A stretch of DNA of 64,000 bases from OCS155 cluster bacterium AG-333-G23 (GCA_003282445.1 QBZE01000003.1:11455-75454), one strand, 5' to 3'. Numbered from the stretch's first letter, positions 6,644 through 61,311 are shown. Numbers and translations: made by a program. The notes: a model not told the origin generated them from the letters alone.

Positions 6644-7621
6644 TTATAAAACGTTTTCACCCATAAAGAGGGCAGAAACTGAATCGTCTGCAAATATAGA
6701 TGTTAGTGCATTTGCAATTATTCCCGAAACACTTAGGACTACTACATTGCCAAGTGCTTCTGAATTACCGTTTTGTGCAAGAGTGTCCGTAACAACTATT
6801 TCATCAATTGGCGCATCTTTAAGTGTTTCTACTGAACCATCAGAAAATATTCCGTGAGTAGCAACTACACTTACTGTCTTCGCTCCCCTCTCTTTTAAGA
6901 TTCTTGAAGCAGCAGCTATTGTTCCTCCAGTATCAATTATGTCATCAATTAATATCGCATGACGATCTTCAACTTCCCCAATTACAGTGAAGGCTTTAAC
7001 TTCATTATGCTTACTTGGATCTCTTTTCTTATGAACAAAACCAACATAAGCTTCTAAATGCTTAGCAAATGTTGTTGCTCTTTTAACACCTCCAGCATCT
7101 GGAGAGATAACAGAAACAGACTCTTCATATTTGTTTTTAAAGTAATCAACAAAAAGAGGCATGGCAGTTAAGTGATCAAATGGTGCGTGTATAAAGCCTT
7201 GAATCTGTTGTGTATGAAGATCAATAGATACTAATCTGTTAGCTCCCGCAGCTATAAATAAATCTCCAATCAATCGGGCAGAAATTGGTTCTCTTGGTAG
7301 TGCTTTTTTATCTTGTCGTGAGTACGGATAAAAAGGAAGTACGGCCGTTATTCTTTTTGCTGATGCTCTCTTTAAAGCATCAACTATTAACAACTGTTCC
7401 ATAATCGTAAAATTGATTCCACCTGAGTGACTTTGGAGAACGAAGCAATCAGCCCCCCTCGCACTATCAGCTAATCGAATGTAGATTTCTCCACTAGCAA
7501 ACTGTTCTTTTTCAACTTCAGCAAGTTCTGTTCCTAAGTCTTTGGATACTTTTTTTGCTAATTCAGTATTGGAAGATCCTGAGTAAATGAGCATTCTCTT
7601 TTTTGTCGATTGCTCAATCAT
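6644..7621 (-). CDS. prs: Ribose-phosphate pyrophosphokinase
   Basis: PRPP-binding loop ILIDDIIDTGGT and a typical Prs N-terminal half. ATGA overlap with the glmU stop. Confidence 0.95.
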   Translation of the reverse strand: MIEQSTKKRMLIYSGSSNTELAKKVSKDLGTELAEVEKEQFASGEIYIRLADSARGADCFVLQSHSGGINFTIMEQLLIVDALKRASAKRITAVLPFYPYSRQDKKALPREPISARLIGDLFIAAGANRLVSIDLHTQQIQGFIHAPFDHLTAMPLFVDYFKNKYEESVSVISPDAGGVKRATTFAKHLEAYVGFVHKKRDPSKHNEVKAFTVIGEVEDRHAILIDDIIDTGGTIAAASRILKERGAKTVSVVATHGIFSDGSVETLKDAPIDEIVVTDTLAQNGNSEALGNVVVLSVSGIIANALTSIFADDSVSALFMGENVL

Positions 7622-17363: not shown

Positions 17364-17704
17364 TGGTGGAGGTGCGGGGAGTCGAACCCCGGTCCTTTTA
17401 AGCTATCAAACAGCTTCTCCGAGTGCATCTGGTGTAATACTATTGAGAAAGTCACCAGAACCTATATCTCAATAGTTTCTACCTTAAAACTTAAAAGTTA
17501 GTCGGTAGCCTAACTTCGCATCCCACATTTCAACGCCGATACTATCCGAGGTGGGAACCCCGATAGTCGACGAGTCGCAATTAAGCGGCTATAGCCAATT
17601 TAGGTTTGGCAGTTATATTTTTTTTCCTACGTTTTTAACGAGGCCCTAGGTCCCTCGACTCGCTACTGAGAGACTCACTTCAAAGTCGAAGCCAGTTCAC
17701 CCCC
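17364..17704 (-). ncRNA. ssrA: tmRNA (SsrA), one-piece, CCA encoded
   Basis: On the minus strand the 5' end is GGGGGTGAACTGGCTTCGAC and the 3' end is GGGGTTCGACTCCCCGCACCTCCACCA, the canonical tRNA-Ala-like ends. It contains an internal tag ORF. It is one of the few GC-rich stretches in an AT-rich background. Confidence 0.95.
17581..17610 (-). other. Predicted tmRNA tag reading frame AKPKLAIAA-stop
   Basis: Minus strand reads ...AAAAAAAATATAACT GCC AAA CCT AAA TTG GCT ATA GCC GCT TAA. The A-rich leader, GCC resume codon and hydrophobic ..AA C-terminus are typical of SsrA tags. The resume codon was assigned by eye. Confidence 0.6.
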
Positions 17705-17757: not shown

Positions 17758-18405
17758 ATGAAAACAAGTGAAAATACTTTTGAATTAAACACTGTTCTTG
17801 AGGTTATTTTAGACTCTAATGACAATGATGGTTTAATTTTTGTGCCTAAGAATACTGAAATTAAAGTAGTTATTGAAAACTATTTTGGAAAAATTTTAAT
17901 TAATGAAATTAATATTAAAAATGTAGAGGATGAGATGGCGCTATCTAAAGATAAGCTAGAAACCTCTTTACCATTGCTAGATTTAAAACTTTTAGATAGG
18001 TATTTGTTTAAACAGTTAAATGATAAAGCTAGTTTTAATTATTCACCATATAATTACTTTCCAAATTATGATTTCTCTGTATTTGAAAAAGGAAGAAGAG
18101 GTAATGATATTGACTGGGCTATGCTTTCATCACTGTATATTTTTTCATGTAATGTGCTACCAGAATCAATTAAAGTAGAGCTTTCTTTAGCTAAAGAGTT
18201 GAGAATCTCTGAAGAAAATGTAAAAAAGTTTATCAAAAAAATTCCAGAAAATATATTTAGAAAAACTGGACACTTAGAAAGCAGAGGAGGTAATTTAACT
18301 TTTGATGCTGAAGAATTAATTAAAAATAATTTAAATGAAGAAGATAAAAGTAACTTTGACGAAAATCCTTATTTAAAATTTCACTCAGGATCTGATTTGG
18401 CTTGA
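17758..18405 (+). CDS. Hypothetical protein (215 aa), no recognisable motif
   Basis: Long ORF in an AT-rich genome where random ORFs are short. I see no family signature. Confidence 0.55.
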   Translation: MKTSENTFELNTVLEVILDSNDNDGLIFVPKNTEIKVVIENYFGKILINEINIKNVEDEMALSKDKLETSLPLLDLKLLDRYLFKQLNDKASFNYSPYNYFPNYDFSVFEKGRRGNDIDWAMLSSLYIFSCNVLPESIKVELSLAKELRISEENVKKFIKKIPENIFRKTGHLESRGGNLTFDAEELIKNNLNEEDKSNFDENPYLKFHSGSDLA

Positions 18406-18821
18406 GGCCGGATCATAGAATTTAATTTACTCACTTCTATAACCCACAACTCTCTATCTTTGATTCCTGCCTCATCCCAAGAAACATCATCTTCTCTTGC
18501 ATATGGATGGCTGGTATATCTTTGAGATAGCTTATCTATATGTTGATTTGCACTCTCATCTTCAATAATCTCAATCACTTTTCCCCTGGCTTCCCAACTT
18601 GAATACATTGCAGATGGTTCAAAAATTACTAATGTAATTAAATTATTGTTTCTAATATTTGAAGTTTTTTTTCTTCCTTTTTCTGTATTGATAAGCAAAA
18701 AATCATCTTTATAATCTATCCACATTAAATGATTTTGAATTTCATTATTTTCTAAATATGTAGCGATTGAACAAAATGCATTATTTTCAATAGCCTTTTT
18801 TAATTCCAAAGTTAGTTGCAT
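18381..18821 (-). CDS. Pyridoxamine 5'-phosphate oxidase-fold (PPOX-class, possibly F420/FMN-dependent) protein
   Basis: The pattern FCSIAT...G.....MW.......L.INT..GR.K..NI..N....L....P.....S.....G resembles the split-barrel PPOX family. ATG at 18821 is preferred over the track's TTG at 18839. Confidence 0.6.
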   Translation of the reverse strand: MQLTLELKKAIENNAFCSIATYLENNEIQNHLMWIDYKDDFLLINTEKGRKKTSNIRNNNLITLVIFEPSAMYSSWEARGKVIEIIEDESANQHIDKLSQRYTSHPYAREDDVSWDEAGIKDRELWVIEVSKLNSMIRPQAKSDPE

Positions 18822-18851
18822 ATTATTAATTTTAAGCAAAAATAATTAAAT

Positions 18852-19424
18852 ATGGCTTTTATAAAAATCTTTAACTTTGAAGAGTCTTCTGGTCTCTTAA
18901 AAAAAGAATATGAAAAAGGAATGCGGAGAGCTGGAAGGATTTGGAAAATTCTAAGTATCCAATCTCAAACACCTCAAATACTTCAAGACTCAATGAGGTT
19001 GTACGGCTCAACTATGTTTGGTAATTCAAAATTGACTAGGTTTGACAGAGAGTTGCTAGCTGTAGTAACTTCTATTTCCAATGAATGTGAATACTGAATA
19101 ACTGCACACCTATATGATCTCCGGTCGGAGACAAAAGATCAAAAACTCATAGACGATGTAGCTAATGATTGGAAAAATAGTTCATTATCTGAAAAACATA
19201 TGGAGTTATGCAAGTTTGCAGAAAAATTAACAATGACACCAGGAAAAATGAATAAAAAAGATATCGAATCACTAAAAGCTTTTGATTTTACTGAATCAGA
19301 AATTTCAGAAATAGTCCAAGTTGTCTCTTATTTTAATTACATCAATAGAGTAGCTGATGGCCTAGGGCTAGAACCAGAAGAATTCATTGATAAATTAGGC
19401 TATAAAAAAAATATTGATGAATAA
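18852..19424 (+). CDS. AhpD/carboxymuconolactone-decarboxylase-family peroxidase-related protein with an in-frame TGA at 19095..19097. Either a candidate selenocysteine codon or a nonsense pseudogene.
   Basis: Track ORFs 18852..19097 and 19200..19424 share one frame, and codons 19098..19199 are open. The joined 190-aa product reads ...LLAVVTSISNECEY[TGA]ITAHLYDL...LSEKHMELCKFAEKLT...ISEIVQVVSYFNYINRVADGLG. The TGA falls at the second Cys of the family's C-x-Y-C-x-x-x-H motif. Confidence 0.65.
19115..19133 (+). promoter_or_regulatory. Candidate bacterial SECIS-like hairpin downstream of the in-frame TGA
   Basis: UG(A)UCUCC-GGUC-GGAGA-CA: 7 bp with a bulged A at 19117 and apical loop GGUC at 19123..19126, beginning 26 nt after the UGA. 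It is a local GC-rich patch in an AT-rich gene. Confidence 0.45.
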
Positions 19425-19448
19425 TTAAGAATCTCTAACATAGTTTTA

Positions 19449-20381
19449 GTGGAAAAAAGAAAAACATTATTACTTTTTAATATTTTAATATTTACATTTC
19501 TTTCTATATTTGTGCTGTCCGAAAAGCTAAATATCTCAGGAAATACAATAATCAATAATAATGAAGAGATTATTGCAGTAGATAACTCAGTGGATATTCC
19601 TGACAATGAAAAAGTAATTACCAACATTACAACAACAACTGTTCCATCTTTGCAAGACAGTTACGAAGAAGAAATGCAAACAAATATCAACTTTAAACTA
19701 CCTGATAGTGACGGTGTTGATATTTATACATCAAAGATCTCAATTTATTCAACTGAAGAACAAACGATTCTAAGTAAGATAATTCCCGGGATAAGCCTTG
19801 AACAAGGTTGTGTCATCGAAAATATTAATGAGACAGATAATCAATGGATTAATGTGCTTGAAGCTAATGTTTACAACGAAGAGAAGATTAATTTTTCTCT
19901 ATCAGTTGAATCAAGCTTACCAATCGATGCTTATTGTCTCTCAAACTTTATTACTTCAATATTAAATGATAAGCGTGGATGGACAACAATAGTTGGAAAA
20001 GAGTTTCAAGTTGTTAATTATTATGATGCCGACTTTCATATTTTCCTTGCTAACCCAAATACTGTTGATGAGATGTGTTTTCCTTTACAAACAAATGGTA
20101 TTTACTCATGTCGAAATGGAAATCAAATAATCTACAACTACTTTAGATGGCTTGCTGGTGCAAAAGATTTTGGACTTGATATAGCTACTTATAGACTTTA
20201 TCTCATTAATCATGAAGTAGGACATATGTTTGGCTGGGGACACACTGATTGTCCATCACAAAATGCTCTTGCGCCATTAATGATGCAACAGTCAAAAACT
20301 ACTGGTGGGTGTATACCAAATGGATGGCCGATATATGAAAGAATTACTTACTTATACGAATCTGTTGATAATTTTAAATAG
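19449..20381 (+). CDS. Secreted or membrane-anchored DUF3152-like zinc metalloprotease-motif protein
   Basis: N-terminal hydrophobic anchor. RGW...F.V and the YRLYLINHEVGHMFGWGHTDCP...APLMMQQS motif (HExxHxxGxxH) match the actinobacterial DUF3152 pattern as I remember it. Confidence 0.7.
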   Translation: MEKRKTLLLFNILIFTFLSIFVLSEKLNISGNTIINNNEEIIAVDNSVDIPDNEKVITNITTTTVPSLQDSYEEEMQTNINFKLPDSDGVDIYTSKISIYSTEEQTILSKIIPGISLEQGCVIENINETDNQWINVLEANVYNEEKINFSLSVESSLPIDAYCLSNFITSILNDKRGWTTIVGKEFQVVNYYDADFHIFLANPNTVDEMCFPLQTNGIYSCRNGNQIIYNYFRWLAGAKDFGLDIATYRLYLINHEVGHMFGWGHTDCPSQNALAPLMMQQSKTTGGCIPNGWPIYERITYLYESVDNFK

Positions 20382-25596: not shown

Positions 25597-26274
25597 CTAA
25601 ATATACCTACCTTCGGCTGCATCACTTACAAGTTTTCCATCTTTAAGTTGAAGAACTCTCTTCTTCCTTCTGTTTACAATTGATGAATCGTGTGTAGCCA
25701 TTAATACTGTTGTTCCTGCCCTATTAATTTTTTCAAGTAGAGTAACAATCTGAATACTTAAGTTTGGATCTAAATTTCCAGTGGGTTCATCACACAACAA
25801 TAGTAAAGGGTTGCTGGCTAGTGCTCTGGCTATGCTTACCCTCGTTTGTTCTCCCCCAGATAACTGATGAGGAAACTTAAAGATACTTTCTTCAAGTTCT
25901 ACTAGTTCTATTAAAGTGTTTGTTTTTTCTTCTATATCTTTAGATTCATATCCCAGTATCTCTAATGCAAAAGTTATATTTTCAAAAGTTGTTCTATCTT
26001 CTAATAATTGGGGTTCTTGAGTTACTATTCCAAGCTTCCTTCTCAGAATTGGTATTTTCCATTTAGGTAGAGAGGTAACATCCATGTCAACAACTTCTAA
26101 ACTACCTTTTGTTGCAAAATGTTCTTTATATAGCAACTTAAGAAAAGATGATTTTCCACTTCCTGATGGTCCAATTAAATAGACAAATTCTCCCTCGGAT
26201 ATTGAAGTAGACACATTTGACAATGCAACACTTCCACCTTGGAAAACCAATGAAACATTTTCTAATTTAATCAT
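25597..26274 (-). CDS. ftsE: Cell division ATP-binding protein FtsE
   Basis: Walker A GPSGSGKSS, signature LSGGEQTRV, Walker B LLLCDEPTGNLD. 225 aa. Confidence 0.93.
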   Translation of the reverse strand: MIKLENVSLVFQGGSVALSNVSTSISEGEFVYLIGPSGSGKSSFLKLLYKEHFATKGSLEVVDMDVTSLPKWKIPILRRKLGIVTQEPQLLEDRTTFENITFALEILGYESKDIEEKTNTLIELVELEESIFKFPHQLSGGEQTRVSIARALASNPLLLLCDEPTGNLDPNLSIQIVTLLEKINRAGTTVLMATHDSSIVNRRKKRVLQLKDGKLVSDAAEGRYI

Positions 26275-27371
26275 TTAACCCCTGTCTACGCCATTTTAGA
26301 TACTCTTTTATAAAAATGGAAATATCGCCATCCAATACAGATTGGATATTTCCTACTTCAATACTAGTTCTAGCATCTTTTACTTGTTGATAAGGTTGCA
26401 TAACATAAGAACGAATTTGTCTTCCCCAGCCTGCTTCTACTTGTTCTCCTCTGATATCGTCTAATTTTTTTAATTGTTCTTCTCTTTCCAATAATGTAAT
26501 TTTTGATTTTAATAAATCTAAAGCTCTAACCTTATTTTGCAATTGTGACCTTTCAGCTTGGCACGCAACTACTATCCCCGTTGGAATATGTGTAATTCTG
26601 ACTGCTGAGTCTGTTGTGTTGACATGCTGACCTCCAGCACCAGATGATCTATAAACGTCTACTCTTATTTCATCATCTTTTATATTCACTTCGTCAGAAT
26701 TTTCAATTAAAGGAACTACATCTATTCCAGCAAAACTTGTATGACGTCTTTTATTACTGTCGAAAGGACTTATCCTTACGAGTCTATGTACTCCTCTTTC
26801 GCTTTCTAAAAGACCGTACGCGCGATAAGACTTTACCCTAATTGAAACTGATTTTATTCCTGCCTCCTCACCACTTGAAATTTCTTCAATTTCATAATCC
26901 ATATTTTCATTATCAAGAAATCTCGTATACATTCTAAATAGAATATCTGCCCAATCATGAGCATCAACACCACCTGCTCCAGCATTAATATTTAGAACAG
27001 CACTTAAATTATCGTATTCACCATTAAATAAGGATTCTTCTTCTAGAACTGCTAGTTTGGTCTCAAAATCTTTTATCTGAATTTTCACCTCTTCTAATTC
27101 AGAAATTTCGTCTTTGCTTAATTCAATTAATTCATTTAAATCATTTAAATCATTCTCTAGCTTATTTAATAAACTGATAACTTTTTCTATTGACGAGGCC
27201 TCTTTGGTAATAGTTTTTGCATCTTTGTTACTAGACCAAAAATCTTTATCTGATATTAATGAGTTAAGCTCTTTTAATTTTTTTGTTTTCGAATCAAAGT
27301 CAAAGATACTCCTTAGCTGAAGCAAGTCTTTCAAGAAGTTTTTCCAAACGGTTTAATAATTCTTTATACAT
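26267..27371 (-). CDS. prfB: Peptide chain release factor 2, expressed via a programmed +1 frameshift
   Basis: Frame 0: ATG at 27371, MYKELLNRLEKLLERLASAKEYL, then TGA at 27302..27300. The +1 frame continues DFDSKTKKLKEL...SPF...GGQHVNTTDSAVRITH (SPF and GGQ motifs). The track ORF 26267..27334 is only the +1-frame part. Confidence 0.93.
27299..27314 (-). promoter_or_regulatory. prfB +1 frameshift site: internal Shine-Dalgarno plus CUU UGA C
   Basis: Minus strand reads AAG GAG TAT CTT TGA C. The E. coli prfB site, as I remember it, is AGG GGG UAU CUU UGA C. Confidence 0.9.
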
Positions 27372-55042: not shown

Positions 55043-56671
55043 TTAAACAGAGGCAAAAGAATCTTTTGCGTGATATGAAGATCTTACTAAAGGACCAGAT
55101 TCAATATGTGGAATACCAAATTTTTCACCAATTAATTTATATTCATCAAACTCATCTTGTGTTACATATCTGTGAATTGGTCTATGTTTAGATGTAGGTC
55201 TTAAATACTGACCTATTGTGACAATATCAATATCTATTTGGGATACATCTTTCAAAACTGCTATTACTTCATCAAATTCTTCACCCATACCAACAATTAG
55301 TCCCGTTTTAGTTTTTCCAGAAAAATTAACTTCTTTGGCATATTGAAGAAGAGAGAGTGACCTACCATAAGAAGCAGCTGTTCTTATTTCCCTCTGAAGT
55401 CTGGGGACAGTTTCTAGATTGTGATTTAACACTTCTGGTGCTTCATTAATTATGTTATCAATTGCTCTCCTGTCTCCTTTGAAATCAGGAATTAAAACTT
55501 CTACTGATGTTGAAGGGTTCATTAATTTAATTTCTTGAATGGTTTTTGCAAAAAATTCTGAACCTCCATCCTCAAGATCATCTCTGTTAACGGAAGTTAC
55601 TACAGCATGAGTGAGTTTCATCGTTTTAACACTTTCAGCAACTCTCAATGGTTCTAGCTCATCTAGGTCAGAAGGCTTTCCTGTGTTAACATCACAAAAA
55701 CCACAAGCTCTTGTACAAGTATCTCCCATGATCATAAAAGTTGCAGTGCCCATAGACCAACATTCATATATATTTGGACATGAAGCTTCCTCACAAACAG
55801 TGTTTAGTTTTTTTTCATTTATTAAATTTTTTAATTCAATATATTCAGAGCCAAGATTTGCCTTAACCTTCATCCATTCAGGTCTTTTAGGTTCTCCTGG
55901 TAATAATCCTTTTATTGTTACTGGTATTACATTCTTATTTTTATTAAAAACTCCTCTATCAACCATTTCATCAATTTCATATTTTTTTTCTTTCTTAAGT
56001 TGAGTTGGTGTAAATTGAGATAATTGACTATCAATAATCTCGTAATTAAAATTTCTTGAAAACTCTTTTGAGACCTCATTAACAATATCCTTAAATGAAA
56101 CCTCTCTATTAAAAGAGTGTACAGATGAAATCTTTTCATCTGAATTACCACAAGGATTAATCAAATCAAATCCATTCAAATCTTCAAAAATATTTAGAGA
56201 AAATCCATGATAAGTAGTCCATTTGCTGACTTTTATTCCAATTGAAGCAATCTTTCCTTTACTTGTCCAAACCCCTGTGTCCTCTTCTTTTGAATAAGAA
56301 TCTATATTAAAAGCTGCTAAAGCATTGATGATTGATTTTTCAATAGTTCTAACAAATGGAATAACTTTTTTTGGATCAGATAACCTAATTATTGGATAGC
56401 CAATAAGTTGCCCTTTACCATGAAAAGTTATATCTCCTCCTCTATCTGTTTCAAAATACTCTATTCCAAGATTGTCTAGCTTTTCTTTATTAGCGATAAG
56501 ATTATCTTTATCTCCTGATCGTCCGAGAGTGATGACGTTGTTGTGTTCTAATAGAAGTAAATAATCTTCTTCATTGTTACCATCAGAAACTGAATTATGA
56601 AGCCCTTTTTGAAGTGTTAATGCCTCCGCATATGGAAGGTTTCCAAGCCATCTTATGTTTAAAGCTCTCAA
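55043..56671 (-). CDS. lipB-lipA: Fused octanoyltransferase LipB / lipoyl synthase LipA
   Basis: One 542-aa ORF. N-terminal LipB motifs RGGDITFHGKGQLIGYPI, KIASIGIKV and NPCG. C-terminal LipA motifs CEEASCPNIYECW and CTRACGFCDV (radical SAM). Confidence 0.9.
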   Translation of the reverse strand: MRALNIRWLGNLPYAEALTLQKGLHNSVSDGNNEEDYLLLLEHNNVITLGRSGDKDNLIANKEKLDNLGIEYFETDRGGDITFHGKGQLIGYPIIRLSDPKKVIPFVRTIEKSIINALAAFNIDSYSKEEDTGVWTSKGKIASIGIKVSKWTTYHGFSLNIFEDLNGFDLINPCGNSDEKISSVHSFNREVSFKDIVNEVSKEFSRNFNYEIIDSQLSQFTPTQLKKEKKYEIDEMVDRGVFNKNKNVIPVTIKGLLPGEPKRPEWMKVKANLGSEYIELKNLINEKKLNTVCEEASCPNIYECWSMGTATFMIMGDTCTRACGFCDVNTGKPSDLDELEPLRVAESVKTMKLTHAVVTSVNRDDLEDGGSEFFAKTIQEIKLMNPSTSVEVLIPDFKGDRRAIDNIINEAPEVLNHNLETVPRLQREIRTAASYGRSLSLLQYAKEVNFSGKTKTGLIVGMGEEFDEVIAVLKDVSQIDIDIVTIGQYLRPTSKHRPIHRYVTQDEFDEYKLIGEKFGIPHIESGPLVRSSYHAKDSFASV

Positions 56672-57936
56672 CTAATTTCTCCTGACCAATCATGATTTTC
56701 CAGTTTGTCTTTAATTGCGTTTAAAAACAATAAAGCAGTTGAGCCATCAAAAACTCTGTGGTCCCAAGTTAAACTCAAAATTCCAGAATGTCTTATCTCA
56801 ATTGAATCCTCATCCTCTTCAGACTCAACTACTACTGCCTTCTTTTTTACTGACTCTGTAGACAGAATTGCAACATTAGGTTGATTAATAATAGGAGAAG
56901 TTAAAAAAGAATTAAAAGACCCATTATTTGAAATTGTAAATGTACTTCCTGAAACATCTTCAAGAGAAAAGTTTTTTTCTCTTAATTTTTGAGATAATGA
57001 AGTAATTTCTCTTGCTAGCGCTTTAACATCATATGAATCAGATTCTTTAATTGTTCCAACTAGTAATCCTTCTTGATTTATATCAACAGCAATCCCTAAA
57101 TCAATATTTGAATGTATGGTATGTGATTCTTGATCTAAATCGAAAGAACTGTTTACAACAGGGTATTTCTTTAAAGCACCTACGGTTGCATTAGCTATAA
57201 AAGGAAGATAGGTTAATGAAAATCCTTCATCTTTCTTGAAAGCTTCTTTTATTTCAGTCCTTAGTTGTGATATTTTCTCATAATCAACTTCAATTGTTGT
57301 CATTACGTGAGCAGAAGTTTGTTTTGATCTAACCATATTTTCAGCAATCTTTTTTCTTAATCTTGGTATAGATTCACCGGTACTTTTAGTTGAAGATACA
57401 GGCTTTTCAGCAACAGGTTCCTTAACTACTTTTTCTTCACTGGGTCTTTCTCCAGTTGCTATATAAGACTCAATATCTTTTCTTGTAATTCTTCCATCCT
57501 TTCCAGTTCCATTCAAAGAACTAGGATTTAGATTATTTTTACTCAATAACTTTCTAACAACGGGAGAAAGTTTTTGATCAGAATCACTTTCTACAACTAC
57601 AGAACTTACTTCTTCGCCTGTTTCATTTTCTACTATTTCTGGTTCTTCTTGTATCTCAGGCTCCGGAACTTCACTGGGTGTTTCAACTATATCTTGAGAA
57701 TCTCCATCAAGTTCAAGTAAATTTGCTCCAACAGCTACTGTCTCTCCTTCTTCTACAAGTAATGCTGTTACCGTTCCGCTAAATGGAGAGGGAACCTCGG
57801 TATCTACTTTGTCTGTTGAAATTTCTAAAATTGGATCATCTTCACTTACAACATCTCCTGCTTTAACTAGCCAACTTAGTACAGTGCCTTCTGTAACTGT
57901 CTCTCCAAGTTGTGGCATTGTTATGATTTTGCTCAT
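56668..57936 (-). CDS. Dihydrolipoamide acyltransferase (E2) of a 2-oxoacid dehydrogenase complex
   Basis: Lipoyl domain (ISTDKVDTEVPS), peripheral subunit-binding domain (SPVVRKLL...GTGKDGRITRKD), and catalytic DHRVFDG. Confidence 0.93.
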   Translation of the reverse strand: MSKIITMPQLGETVTEGTVLSWLVKAGDVVSEDDPILEISTDKVDTEVPSPFSGTVTALLVEEGETVAVGANLLELDGDSQDIVETPSEVPEPEIQEEPEIVENETGEEVSSVVVESDSDQKLSPVVRKLLSKNNLNPSSLNGTGKDGRITRKDIESYIATGERPSEEKVVKEPVAEKPVSSTKSTGESIPRLRKKIAENMVRSKQTSAHVMTTIEVDYEKISQLRTEIKEAFKKDEGFSLTYLPFIANATVGALKKYPVVNSSFDLDQESHTIHSNIDLGIAVDINQEGLLVGTIKESDSYDVKALAREITSLSQKLREKNFSLEDVSGSTFTISNNGSFNSFLTSPIINQPNVAILSTESVKKKAVVVESEEDEDSIEIRHSGILSLTWDHRVFDGSTALLFLNAIKDKLENHDWSGEIS

Positions 57937-57940
57937 TATG

Positions 57941-59947
57941 TTATTGTAATTCTTTGATAGCTTTTATTAAATTCTCTGCACTAGGAATAAAAGCATCTTC
58001 CAGTATTGGTGCAAATGGGATATGAGTATTAGGTGATGTAACTTTTATAATTGGATTATCTAAATTCCAAAAACCTTTTTCAGCTACTACTGAAGAAACT
58101 TCAGAAGCTATAGATGAAAAAGGGACATCTTCCTGTAGGATTACCAAGTTTGATGTTTTTTCAATAGACTTCAAAATTATCTCTTCATCTAATGGGAAAA
58201 TTGTCCTTAAATCAACTATCTCAACTGAGATATTATCTTTTTTTAATTCCTCAGCAGCTTCAATCGCTGTTGGCACCATTCCTGACCAAGCAACAACTGT
58301 AACGTCATCTCCTGTTTTAACAACTTTTCCTTTACCTAGTTCTACTTCATATAAACCTAGAGGAACATCCATTTTTAAATCTGGTTTTCTATACAACTTT
58401 TTATGTTCAAGATACATAACTGGGTTTGGATCAAAAATTGAAGCAACTAATAATCCTTTTGCATCATATGGATTAGAAGGAGCAACAACCTTAATTCCTG
58501 GGTGATGTGCTAACAATGACTCTGGACTAATTGAGTGAAATGGACCAGAACGAGTCCCTGCTCCAGTAGGACCCCTGACTACCAAAGGAACTGCTTTCCC
58601 TGCTTTCCAATAATATTTAGCTGCTTCTGTAGTGATCTGATCTAACGCTGGGTAAACAAAATCAAAAAACTGTAACTCAATGACAGGTTTTTTTCCCGCT
58701 AATGCTGCCCCAACTCCAGCTCCCATGAAGCCACCTTCCGATATTGGGGTATCTAGAACTCTTGATTCTCCATATTTTTCAAATAATCCCTTTGTAGCTT
58801 TAAATGCTCCTTCAAAAATACCTATATCTTCACCCATCATGAAAATATCTTCATCTTTCTCCATTGCTTCATCTAATCCATTATTTATTGCTTCAATAAA
58901 ATTCATTGTTTCACTATTTGATTCATCATTTGTAAACACCGGAGTCGTACGAGTAGCAAACATATCATCAATTTCTTCATCAGGATTGGGGTCATCTTGT
59001 TCTTTTGCCCAATCAATTGTAGTTTTAATCTCTTTCTCAATTTCTTCTGATAGTGTCTCAAAATCACTATTAGTAAATAGGCCTTCTTCAAGTAAGGCAT
59101 CTTCAAATCTTGTTATTGGATCTCTTTTTATCCAAAATTCTCTTACCTCATCTTCAACGTACTCAGCAGGGTCATGTCCTGCATGCCCATGATGTCTAAA
59201 TGTAACAAGCTCAATTAGGCTAGGCCCATCGTTATTACTTGCTTTCTCGCAAGCGTCGTGCATTGTGTCTATTACTTGATAAATATCATTGCCATCTATA
59301 ATTTTTGATTCTATGCCGTAGCCTGCTCCTCTATCCGCAACATTAGGTGTGCCAAATTCAACTTCATTCGGAGAGGAATAAGCGAATTGATTATTCTGTA
59401 CAGTAAAAACAATAGGTAAATTATGAACGCCTGCCATGTTTATACTTTCATGCCAGGTTCCAGTAGCAGTAGCTCCTTCTCCACAATTGGCAATTGCAAC
59501 CACGCCGCTGTTAGATTGCTGTGAAGCTAAAGCCCATCCAACCGCAACAGGTGCTGAGTCAGGCAGTGGAGAAACTACCATTAATGTTCCTTTATCTACA
59601 ACTCCAAAATGGCTATTTCCATCCCTACCTTTAGAGGGTCCATGTTTCTTTCCAAAGAAATTTAAGCATATTTCCTCTAAAGAAACTCCTCTCATCATTT
59701 GAACACCTAAATCCCTGTGTGTTCCACCAAATATATCATCTTTTCCCATACCAGCTCCAATTCCAGCCATTGAAGCTTCCTGGCCTATTCCTGGATATAC
59801 AGCACCAGAGAGTTGTCCCCCCTTATAAAGCTTTAATAATCTTTCTTCAAGAAGCCGCTGGGTTTTCATTGATTTGTATATCTCCCAAAGTTCTTCTTTG
59901 TTTAAACTCTTTGAGTAGCCTTTTCTTTTTATTGTTTCAATCTCCAT
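57941..59947 (-). CDS. Fused E1 alpha-beta component of a TPP-dependent 2-oxoacid dehydrogenase
   Basis: 668 aa. The N-terminal half has alpha-subunit features (GQEA, the TPP motif CGEGATATGTWHESINMA). The C-terminal half has beta-subunit features (MNFIEAINNGL...GEDIG..GAFKATKGL...RVLDTPISE). Confidence 0.9.
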   Translation of the reverse strand: MEIETIKRKGYSKSLNKEELWEIYKSMKTQRLLEERLLKLYKGGQLSGAVYPGIGQEASMAGIGAGMGKDDIFGGTHRDLGVQMMRGVSLEEICLNFFGKKHGPSKGRDGNSHFGVVDKGTLMVVSPLPDSAPVAVGWALASQQSNSGVVAIANCGEGATATGTWHESINMAGVHNLPIVFTVQNNQFAYSSPNEVEFGTPNVADRGAGYGIESKIIDGNDIYQVIDTMHDACEKASNNDGPSLIELVTFRHHGHAGHDPAEYVEDEVREFWIKRDPITRFEDALLEEGLFTNSDFETLSEEIEKEIKTTIDWAKEQDDPNPDEEIDDMFATRTTPVFTNDESNSETMNFIEAINNGLDEAMEKDEDIFMMGEDIGIFEGAFKATKGLFEKYGESRVLDTPISEGGFMGAGVGAALAGKKPVIELQFFDFVYPALDQITTEAAKYYWKAGKAVPLVVRGPTGAGTRSGPFHSISPESLLAHHPGIKVVAPSNPYDAKGLLVASIFDPNPVMYLEHKKLYRKPDLKMDVPLGLYEVELGKGKVVKTGDDVTVVAWSGMVPTAIEAAEELKKDNISVEIVDLRTIFPLDEEIILKSIEKTSNLVILQEDVPFSSIASEVSSVVAEKGFWNLDNPIIKVTSPNTHIPFAPILEDAFIPSAENLIKAIKELQ

Positions 59948-61311
59948 TAATGCAAACCTTTCCCGCTTAGAGACATGAGTGATTCTCCTATAGCTTCACT
60001 TAATGTTGGGTGAGCATGAATAAATTCTGCAGCTTCACTAGGAAGAGCTTCCCATCCAACCATATACATTAACTCATGTATTAGCTCTCCTGCACTTGGA
60101 CCGCATACACTTGCGCCAACGATAGGGCCATTTTCCTCTGCATAAACTTTAACGATTCCTTGGTTTTGGTTTTGTATTAAAGCCCTTCCCACGCCGACAA
60201 AACTATGCTGAGACTGGGAAATATTGAGCTCATTTACTTTTGCTTTTTCAGAGTTTGTACCTACTTCAGCTAGCTCTGGATTTGTATATACAACATATGG
60301 AATTGCTGAATAATTTACAGGGCTTTTCTCGCCAGTAGCAATATGTGTAATTGCAGAGATTGCTTCTGCAAAAGCTACATGAGCTAACTGTGGAGAGTCT
60401 TTTACTATGTCACCTAATGCATAGATATTATCAGTAGAAGTTTGCATAGTTTCAAGATCTACATTTATAAATCCATTTTCATTTGATATCCCAACATTAT
60501 CCAGGCCAATATTCTGAGTAAAAGGTTGTCGGCCGATAGCAACCAAGACAGAGTCAAAATTTTCTTTTTCTCCGTCTGAAAAAACTATTTCATTATTACT
60601 GGTGCTTTCTATGGAAGTTTTTAATTTAAAATTTACGCCTCTTTTTGTTAATTGTTTTCTTAATTCTGCAGATGTTCTCTTGTCTAAACCGGGAAGAATT
60701 TCATCTTCTAACTCAACAACAGTAACTTCTGAATCAAGATCGATAAGTAAACTTGCAAATTCACATCCAATTGCTCCTGCACCAACTATACAAACTTTTT
60801 TTGGTGGCTCGTCCCAGTTCAATGCTGTATCTGAATTTATTATGAAATTATTATCAAACTCTAAATTAGGTAGGCTTCTTGGCTGAGAACCAGTAGCTAA
60901 GAGGACGTAATCTGAAGCAATCTTTTCTTCTTCTCCATTTTCTTTTTTAACAATTACAACATTTTTTGACTCTATCTGTCCCCATCCCTCAATGACATTT
61001 ACTTTTTTACTTTTTAATAAAGTCCCTATCCCTGAAACTAATTTGTTAACTATCTCGTTTCTTTTATTTGTTGTATTTGCCCAATTAATATTTTTTTGAT
61101 TTATTTCTATTCCGTAGTCATTGGCATTCTCAATTTCATGATTCAGTTCAGCAACATGTAACCAGTATTTTGCAGGGATGCATCCTCTATTTAAACAAGT
61201 ACCACCTAAAACATCAGACTCTATAAGTGTTACGTCTAAATCGAAATTATTAGCATATAAAGCAGCCGCATAACCTGCGGGGCCACCGCCAATTATCGTT
61301 ATTTTTTTCAA
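59947..61311 (-). CDS. lpd: Dihydrolipoyl dehydrogenase (E3)
   Basis: GGGPAGY FAD fold, redox-active disulfide GGTCLNRGCIPAK, C-terminal HAHPTLSE. Confidence 0.95.
   Translation of the reverse strand: MKKITIIGGGPAGYAAALYANNFDLDVTLIESDVLGGTCLNRGCIPAKYWLHVAELNHEIENANDYGIEINQKNINWANTTNKRNEIVNKLVSGIGTLLKSKKVNVIEGWGQIESKNVVIVKKENGEEEKIASDYVLLATGSQPRSLPNLEFDNNFIINSDTALNWDEPPKKVCIVGAGAIGCEFASLLIDLDSEVTVVELEDEILPGLDKRTSAELRKQLTKRGVNFKLKTSIESTSNNEIVFSDGEKENFDSVLVAIGRQPFTQNIGLDNVGISNENGFINVDLETMQTSTDNIYALGDIVKDSPQLAHVAFAEAISAITHIATGEKSPVNYSAIPYVVYTNPELAEVGTNSEKAKVNELNISQSQHSFVGVGRALIQNQNQGIVKVYAEENGPIVGASVCGPSAGELIHELMYMVGWEALPSEAAEFIHAHPTLSEAIGESLMSLSGKGLH

Follow-up and report, generated by a model that had tools for sequence, protein, structure and literature searches.

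A 64,000-nt stretch of the genome of OCS155 cluster bacterium AG-333-G23 (GCA_003282445.1, QBZE01000003.1:11455-75454), which we refer to as the window and in which positions are counted from the first letter, holds at 18852..19424 what is very probably a single, functional selenoprotein gene of Candidatus Actinomarina, encoding an AhpD-like, peroxidase-related enzyme (TIGR01926) with selenocysteine (Sec) at the in-frame UGA of codon 82. The protein matches of the window, its GC content of 32% and the tag of its one-piece transfer-messenger RNA (tmRNA), which is the same as that of the closest relative, identify it as a fragment of an Actinomarina genome (Actinomarinales, Acidimicrobiia). The selenoprotein family is already known and the gene is a genuine but largely ordinary case of it. 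What may be new is modest in each respect: the assignment to Actinomarina together with the presence of the gene in every Actinomarina locus fetched, the documentation of its split or tryptophan (Trp) mis-annotation, and its linkage in relatives to an operon ending in a dihydrolipoyl acyltransferase (E2).

An in-frame TGA in an AhpD-like gene

Translation of 18852..19427 in one frame gives 81 codons, the TGA at 19095..19097, 108 sense codons and a TAA at 19422..19424. The initial annotation had joined two open-reading frames (ORFs), 18852..19097 and 19200..19424, into one gene, and the two do share a frame, their offset being 348 nt, a multiple of 3, with the 34 codons between them (19098..19199) translating free of stops. 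It had also placed the TGA at the second Cys of a C-x-Y-C-x-x-x-H motif, which the alignment upholds: the motif reads N-E-C79-E-Y-U82-I-T-A-H86, and when the solved structures 6k40 (N-R-C-V-Y-C-A-V-S-H) and 2oyo are aligned with it, their second CxxC Cys falls on U82.

For profile scoring a Cys was placed at position 82, and the joined product then scored 129.2 bits against NCBIfam TIGR01926 ‘peroxidase-related enzyme’ (cutoff 81.8), 32.8 bits against TIGR00778, the AhpD core domain (ahpD_dom, cutoff 27.8), and 40.8 bits against Pfam CMD PF02627 (cutoff 23). The end-to-end match of the 190-codon product to the peroxidase-related family, asserted in the initial annotation, runs in TIGR01926 from residue 17 to 176, across profile positions 16–176 of 178. 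The closest solved structures are all AhpD-like, namely 6k40 (E 3e-23), 2oyo (E 6e-22), 3c1l, 2pfx and 2prr. The gene has every sequence-level feature of the AhpD-like CxxU selenoprotein family. Two other assignments were considered and rejected. The first was NF041238, an AhpD-related CFYUT (seleno)protein corresponding to ‘hypothetical protein 1’ of the Sargasso Sea survey, against which the product scored 56.7 bits (cutoff 175). The second was gamma-carboxymuconolactone decarboxylase (PcaC) proper, as the specific NCBIfam matches are all to peroxidase or AhpD-type models and the Pfam CMD match is generic only; no pca genes were found among the annotated neighbours.

A scan of one genome per species provided 80 orthologous loci, 81 with the window, and the codon homologous to codon 82 is TGA in 79 of the 81 and TGC in the other two. 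The comparison of orthologues proposed in the initial annotation, which asked whether relatives carry TGA or TGY at this codon, has thus come down on the side of TGA. The top match to the window gene is from a Red Sea Actinomycetota metagenome-assembled genome (MAG; 96% amino-acid identity), followed at 70–75% by single-cell genomes and MAGs of Candidatus Actinomarina/OCS155. TGA is carried by 27 Actinomarina sequences (the window and 26 loci), by about 40 high-GC MAGs labelled Acidimicrobiia, Actinomycetota or Acidobacteriota, and by further MAGs labelled Chloroflexota, Marinimicrobia, Calditrichaceae and Kiloniellales. The frame runs on to a conserved YFNYINR motif in all loci. Only the two Cys-form loci have lost Cys79, which the TGA carriers all retain (79/79); His86 was seen in all loci, with alignment columns 13–14 (C, A) of its codon invariant.

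The two Cys forms (L071, 10001..10549, and L074, 10001..10537) make up one divergent clade and are the only ones among the 80 loci; having also lost the first motif Cys (S-T-R-Y-C-T), they represent a one-Cys AhpD-like variant. A database protein sharing 52% identity (P0049) has Arg at the same column (N-E-C-D-Y-R-T-Q), which either a change from TGA to CGA or a sequencing error could explain. Some of the taxonomic labels deserve caution: ‘Acidobacteriota’ MAGs from Microflora Danica bins group with the Acidimicrobiia loci and share pyruvate dehydrogenase (PDH) proteins of 94–99% identity with an ‘Actinomycetota’ MAG (L049 vs. L053), and at least one of these labels is probably wrong.

A conserved hairpin downstream of the TGA

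Within the coding sequence, about 20 nt past the UGA, lies a hairpin resembling a selenocysteine insertion sequence (SECIS). Its upper stem pairs 19118..19122 with 19127..19131 around an apical loop GGUC (19123..19126), which starts 25 nt past the UGA, and two lower pairs (19115–19116 with 19132–19133) sit below a bulged A at 19117. The 79 TGA-containing sequences, 72 of them distinct, align gap-free over 60 nt from the TGA, with the hairpin at columns 22–39. In Actinomarina it takes the form UG-A-UCUCC-GGUC-GGAGA-CA, with 5 bp and a further 2 bp below the bulged A, and in the high-GC group the form GACCUC-CGGGAU-GAGGUC, with 6 bp. Four core pairs are standard pairs in 72/72 distinct sequences. 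At pair 24–37, 43 sequences have C-G, 28 have U-A and one has U-G, and at pair 25–36, 70 have C-G and two have U-A; pair 27–34 is C-G in 69 and U-G in three, with no full compensatory change. When the 3′ arm was slid by 1–3 columns as a control, pairing dropped from 82% to 35–47% and nearly all of the compensatory cells disappeared, and RNAalifold recovered the same core independently. The conserved structure after the TGA that the initial annotation had suggested looking for is therefore present, with compensatory changes at two pairs. In these changes a silent change of an Asp codon (GAC/GAU) is coupled with an amino-acid change in the opposite arm (GUC Val, AUC Ile, ACA Thr), a coupling for which constraint on the protein would hardly account by itself.

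Folding energies and codon choice were also considered. The hairpin of the window folds at −6.9 kcal/mol (z −1.97) and short folds of the Sec forms range from −6.9 to −11.3 kcal/mol (z −1.8 to −3.0), whilst the two Cys forms, with Tyr in place of Leu, give irregular, weaker folds (z about −0.75). A wider, outer GAUC pairing (71-nt fold, z −0.13) was rejected, as the Actinomarina sequences do not conserve its 3′ arm. Codon shares were computed from the long ORFs of the window: in the string CUC-CGG-UCG-GAG, CUC makes up 3.7% of Leu codons, CGG, which is invariant in the hairpin, 0.8% of Arg codons (4/520), UCG 3.1% of Ser codons and GAG 23% of Glu codons, giving a joint expectation of 2e-6. The string is kept in all 27 Actinomarina sequences, with a single C-to-U wobble change in four. 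Comparison of the sequences in pairing, folding and codon use shows the putative SECIS to be maintained at the RNA level. The Sargasso Sea survey took as its criterion a stable stem-loop following the UGA whose apical loop is small and has a G in it, and the hairpin, with its GGUC loop, agrees with this.

Several points weigh against Sec insertion and lend something to an account without it, in which the UGA terminates translation, leaving an 81-aa product, perhaps alongside a 74-aa one initiated on its own, or is read through by a near-cognate Trp or Cys tRNA, the hairpin being a by-product of the conserved D-L-R-x-E peptide. Sec insertion at codon 82 is a prediction from sequence. The upper stem of the Actinomarina hairpin is short, at 5 bp plus 2 bp, and part of the conservation of the hairpin sequence is that of a protein motif, with the Leu-Arg conserved in Cys homologues as well. 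The Rfam SECIS models gave no match at gathering thresholds or at E ≤10 other than chance matches to eukaryotic families; bacterial SECIS elements are poorly covered there, and such a miss is expected. ARAGORN found no tRNA-Sec in the window or the 80 fetched loci, tblastn with Escherichia coli SelA, SelB and SelD as probes found no match in 1.39 Mb of window and flanks, and an NCBIfam scan of 20 window ORFs, including those of selA, selB or selD size, returned housekeeping genes only. Finally, the Sec machinery of the source genome rests on one un-refereed preprint.

Against these points stand several observations that make translation without Sec improbable. Conservation of the protein extends over the 34 codons from the TGA up to the internal ATG (AHLYDLRSET...), and translation must therefore continue past the TGA. 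In each of the 27 Actinomarina sequences the hairpin is written in those synonymous codons that an AT-rich genome uses least, its compensatory changes preserve pairing at the cost of the amino acid (Val, Ile or Thr), and in the Cys forms it is degraded. Full Sec machinery has, moreover, been reported for Actinomarina genomes: the preprint ‘Actinomarina, resolved’ describes selC, selA, selD and a divergent selB in 84/84 complete Actinomarina genomes, with about five predicted selenoproteins per genome (bioRxiv 10.64898/2026.04.03.716425). Those it names are SelD, a 78-aa family and a K07090 family; neither AhpD nor a peroxidase is mentioned anywhere in it, and its supplement holds no selenoprotein list and no sequence beginning MAFI (bioRxiv 10.64898/2026.04.03.716425).

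The same preprint sorts its predicted selenoproteins into ‘69 families’ by identity of the first 20 residues (bioRxiv 10.64898/2026.04.03.716425). The N-terminus of the AhpD-like protein alone differs between species (MAFIKIFNFEESSG..., MAFIKLFKFEEST..., MAFIKLFDFKNSSG...), and sorting in this way probably divides a handful of real families too finely.

Against a nonsense mutation and a reassigned code

A TGY-to-TGA nonsense mutation in an ordinary Cys AhpD-like gene, with the part downstream now decaying, would account for the separate 81-aa and 74-aa products that gene callers yield and would fit with there being no Sec machinery visible in the window. Such a pseudogene should not, however, share its TGA with 79/81 orthologues across phyla, all of which have the downstream frame. 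The 60 genes measured in full have 81 codons before the TGA (84 in one) and 104–116 after it, with no extra stop, and the accumulated frameshifts that the initial annotation had named as a sign of decay are absent from the downstream part, which is instead under purifying selection. We computed ratios of nonsynonymous to synonymous substitution (dN/dS) by the Nei-Gojobori method, taking the halves up- and downstream of the TGA separately. In Actinomarina dN/dS was 0.056 upstream and 0.135 downstream (median dS 1.3–1.5), and in the high-GC group 0.150 upstream and 0.217 downstream (median dS 1.1–1.3), so that downstream values stay at 0.14–0.22 with synonymous sites near saturation. This implies that the part after the TGA is translated and under selection and, together with the conservation of the TGA, refutes the pseudogene in practice; we leave it hardly any probability.

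Nor is the TGA a sequencing error, as the same exact fragments recur on about 1000 contigs. The exact 81-aa N-terminal product is found on at least 1000 public contigs, the longest of 1,094,169 bp, and the exact 74-aa C-terminal product on 899, under the names ‘hypothetical protein’ or ‘alkylhydroperoxidase family enzyme’. Full-length homologues in the databases (P0001–P0036) have Trp (W) at the column of codon 82, and the DNA of one of them, P0002, has TGA, which identifies the W as an artefact of gene calling under a TGA=Trp model on short AT-rich contigs. The gene is routinely mis-annotated, either split in two or given a spurious Trp.

That W is what could be said for an organism-wide reassignment of UGA to Trp or Gly (code 4 or 25), a reading which, the W being an artefact, is refuted by the release factor 2 (RF2) gene and the ordinary TGA stops of the window and to which we give practically no weight. 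The prfB gene, on the minus strand, starts at an ATG at 27371 with a short ORF0, followed by an internal Shine-Dalgarno-like AAGGAG and the site TAT CTT TGA C, from where RF2 continues in the +1 frame. With this classical, autoregulatory and UGA-dependent frameshift site (CUU-UGA-C) and with ordinary TGA stops alongside it, UGA is a normal stop read by RF2. Eight of the 37 long ORFs of the window end in TGA. TGA also closes the ORFs with ends at 7618 and 9925 and, on the minus strand, at 56668, to which the initial annotation had pointed in arguing, correctly, that TGA is a genuine stop elsewhere and that the code is not a reassigned one. A six-frame scan of the 64 kb found no other convincing TGA read-through, only ordinary gene ends and non-coding frames, and codon 82 is its only plausible case.

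Gene neighbourhood, proposed redox role and known systems

In Actinomarina the AhpD-like gene sits between a PNPOx-like and a DUF3152 gene (Table 1). No ahpC was found adjacent to it in the window, where its neighbours are the PNPOx-like gene, the gene of a 215-aa protein and DUF3152. A different arrangement is seen in relatives: PDH E1alpha-E1beta-E2 stands directly before the AhpD-like gene in 37 of 54 non-Actinomarina loci, with the E2 match ending 3–9 nt ahead of the start codon in those 37, and E2 lies within ~1 kb in four more (examples among L026–L076 are L049, 6745..12175, and L032, 6426..12066, labelled Acidimicrobiia). Both Cys-form loci have this same E2-operon context. Downstream of the AhpD-like gene the relatives usually have an S10-like serine carboxypeptidase; the 542-aa gene beside E2 in the window was considered as its counterpart and rejected, being a LipB-LipA fusion.

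Table 1 Coordinates of the AhpD-like gene, its elements and other features of the window
Feature	Coordinates	Strand	Evidence or remarks
One-piece tmRNA	17364..17704	-	Tag AKPKLAIAA
215-aa protein	17758..18405	+	No family match; found only in Actinomarina loci
PNPOx/F420-type flavin-binding protein	18381..18839	-	Divergent from AhpD-like gene, ~12–30 nt between starts
AhpD-like (peroxidase-related, TIGR01926) selenoprotein gene (predicted)	18852..19424	+	190 codons including UGA-82; translation, profiles, PDB homologues, 80 colinear orthologous loci
Cys79 codon TGT	19086..19088	+	First residue of C-x-x-U; putative resolving Cys
In-frame TGA, codon 82	19095..19097	+	Putative selenocysteine codon; nucleophile position of AhpD active site
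His86 codon CAC	19107..19109	+	His of C-x-x-U-x-x-x-H motif
SECIS-like hairpin within coding sequence	19115..19133	+	Fold, pairing in 72 distinct sequences, rare codons
DUF3152 HExxH metalloprotease-like protein	19449..20381	+	N-terminal hydrophobic segment
prfB (release factor 2)	26267..27371	-	TIGR00020, 461.9 bits; programmed +1 frameshift site ~27308..27299
LipB-LipA fusion, 542 aa	55043..56671	-	LplA-B_cat, LIAS_N and Radical_SAM domains
Dihydrolipoyl acyltransferase E2, 422 aa	56668..57936	-	Pfam 2-oxoacid_dh, Biotin_lipoyl, E3_binding; putative partner
E1alpha/beta single-polypeptide fusion, 668 aa	57941..59947	-	NCBIfam
Lpd, 454 aa	59947..61311	-	NCBIfam

By the established bacterial Sec pathway, SelB with GTP and Sec-tRNA(Sec) would bind the hairpin, and selenocysteine would be delivered to UGA-82 in competition with RF2 to yield the 190-residue protein. 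In Mycobacterium tuberculosis AhpD, the second Cys of the CxxC attacks and His and Glu activate it. From what is known of the family, and from the H2O2-sensitive mutant of the Deinococcus radiodurans homologue DR1765, Sec82 would be the nucleophile and Cys79 the resolving residue, the two forming a selenenylsulfide. The protein may then act in defence against peroxide or disulfide stress, as family members suggest, reducing either a peroxiredoxin-type partner or hydroperoxides directly; no peroxiredoxin partner was identified. The gene order of the relatives points to its re-reduction by a 2-oxoacid dehydrogenase E2, through the dihydrolipoyl arm, with Lpd and NADH, a route by which AhpD proteins are reduced (Bryk 2002, Hillas 2000). 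As the PDH cluster of the window (55043..61311), which encodes the candidate electron donor, lies 37 kb from the Actinomarina gene and not beside it, the link to lipoyl-E2 is drawn by analogy with these relatives; we regard lipoyl-E2 as the most likely reductant, with about an even chance of being right. In the library searched we found no paper joining AhpD, selenocysteine and lipoamide, nor one describing the E2-AhpD-like linkage. We further suggest, more tentatively, that in the Acidimicrobiia lineage the Sec-containing AhpD-like gene was ancestrally the last of a pyruvate dehydrogenase E1alpha-E1beta-E2 operon and encoded a selenium-dependent, lipoyl-E2-coupled peroxide/disulfide reductase taking its electrons straight from central carbon metabolism, and that Actinomarina moved the gene out of the operon and kept it in every species.

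Recognising one selenoprotein here corrects the record of an abundant surface-ocean gene that is entered as two fragments or with a spurious Trp, and gives an antioxidant/redox identity to one of the few selenoproteins in one of the smallest free-living cells. It is relevant to the selenium demand of the surface ocean and to the question of why costly Sec machinery persists in a streamlined genome. If the lipoyl-E2-coupled reading is true, the AhpD-like protein would be one of about five selenoproteins whose benefit pays for that machinery in a genome of ~1.1 Mb, and the E2-AhpD-like operon of the relatives offers a testable electron donor for the AhpD-like selenoprotein family. The general picture of bacterial selenoproteins is unchanged by these findings.

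Among characterised homologues, the window protein is colinear with DR1765 (6k40) and D. geothermalis 2oyo over residues 58–176, with the CxxCxxxH aligned; the Deinococcus proteins differ in having Cys where the window gene has Sec and in lacking the hairpin-encoding D-L-R-x-E-(V/I/T) segment. D. radiodurans without DR1765, the closest homologue to have been characterised, is H2O2-sensitive, and complementation is much weaker with variants mutated in the CxxC cysteines (Zhao 2020). DR1765 and M. tuberculosis AhpD are only 12% identical. The window protein shares with M. tuberculosis AhpD the CMD/AhpD fold family and a CxxCxxxH-type active site, and the E2-AhpD-like operon of the high-GC relatives points to the electron route of the M. 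tuberculosis AhpC/AhpD/DlaT/Lpd system. However, the sequence relation is distant only, the M. tuberculosis form carries Cys and not Sec, and, in contrast to the window gene, which has no ahpC next to it, it is described within an AhpC/AhpD system.

The hairpin may be set beside the SECIS of E. coli fdhF, the archetype of the bacterial element, in its general features: both lie inside the coding sequence soon after the UGA, with G and U in a small loop and one bulged base below the upper stem. The window stem is shorter and slightly farther from the UGA, it has no sequence homology to that of fdhF, and its binding by SelB is putative.

The closest comparison is with the AhpD-like family of the marine metagenome surveys, and the initial annotation was right in recalling that such selenoproteins had been reported there. 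The AhpD-like protein (COG2128, CxxU) was among the selenoprotein families first described by the Sargasso Sea survey of 2005, which had 27 of its sequences and showed a predicted SECIS. The Global Ocean Sampling (GOS) survey of 2008 counted 299 Sec sequences and 902 Cys homologues of ‘AhpD-like 1’, which ranked fourth in abundance among the prokaryotic selenoprotein families there. A 2026 review in Applied and Environmental Microbiology lists ‘AhpD-like protein, TIGR01926, CxxU’, and BSepDB has a page for the family. Like these sequences, the window gene scores above the same NCBIfam cutoff, has its predicted Sec second in C-x-x-U, is followed by a SECIS-like hairpin with G in the loop, and comes from marine surface water. 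Unlike the Sargasso and GOS entries, which are without an organism assignment, it is placed in Candidatus Actinomarina.

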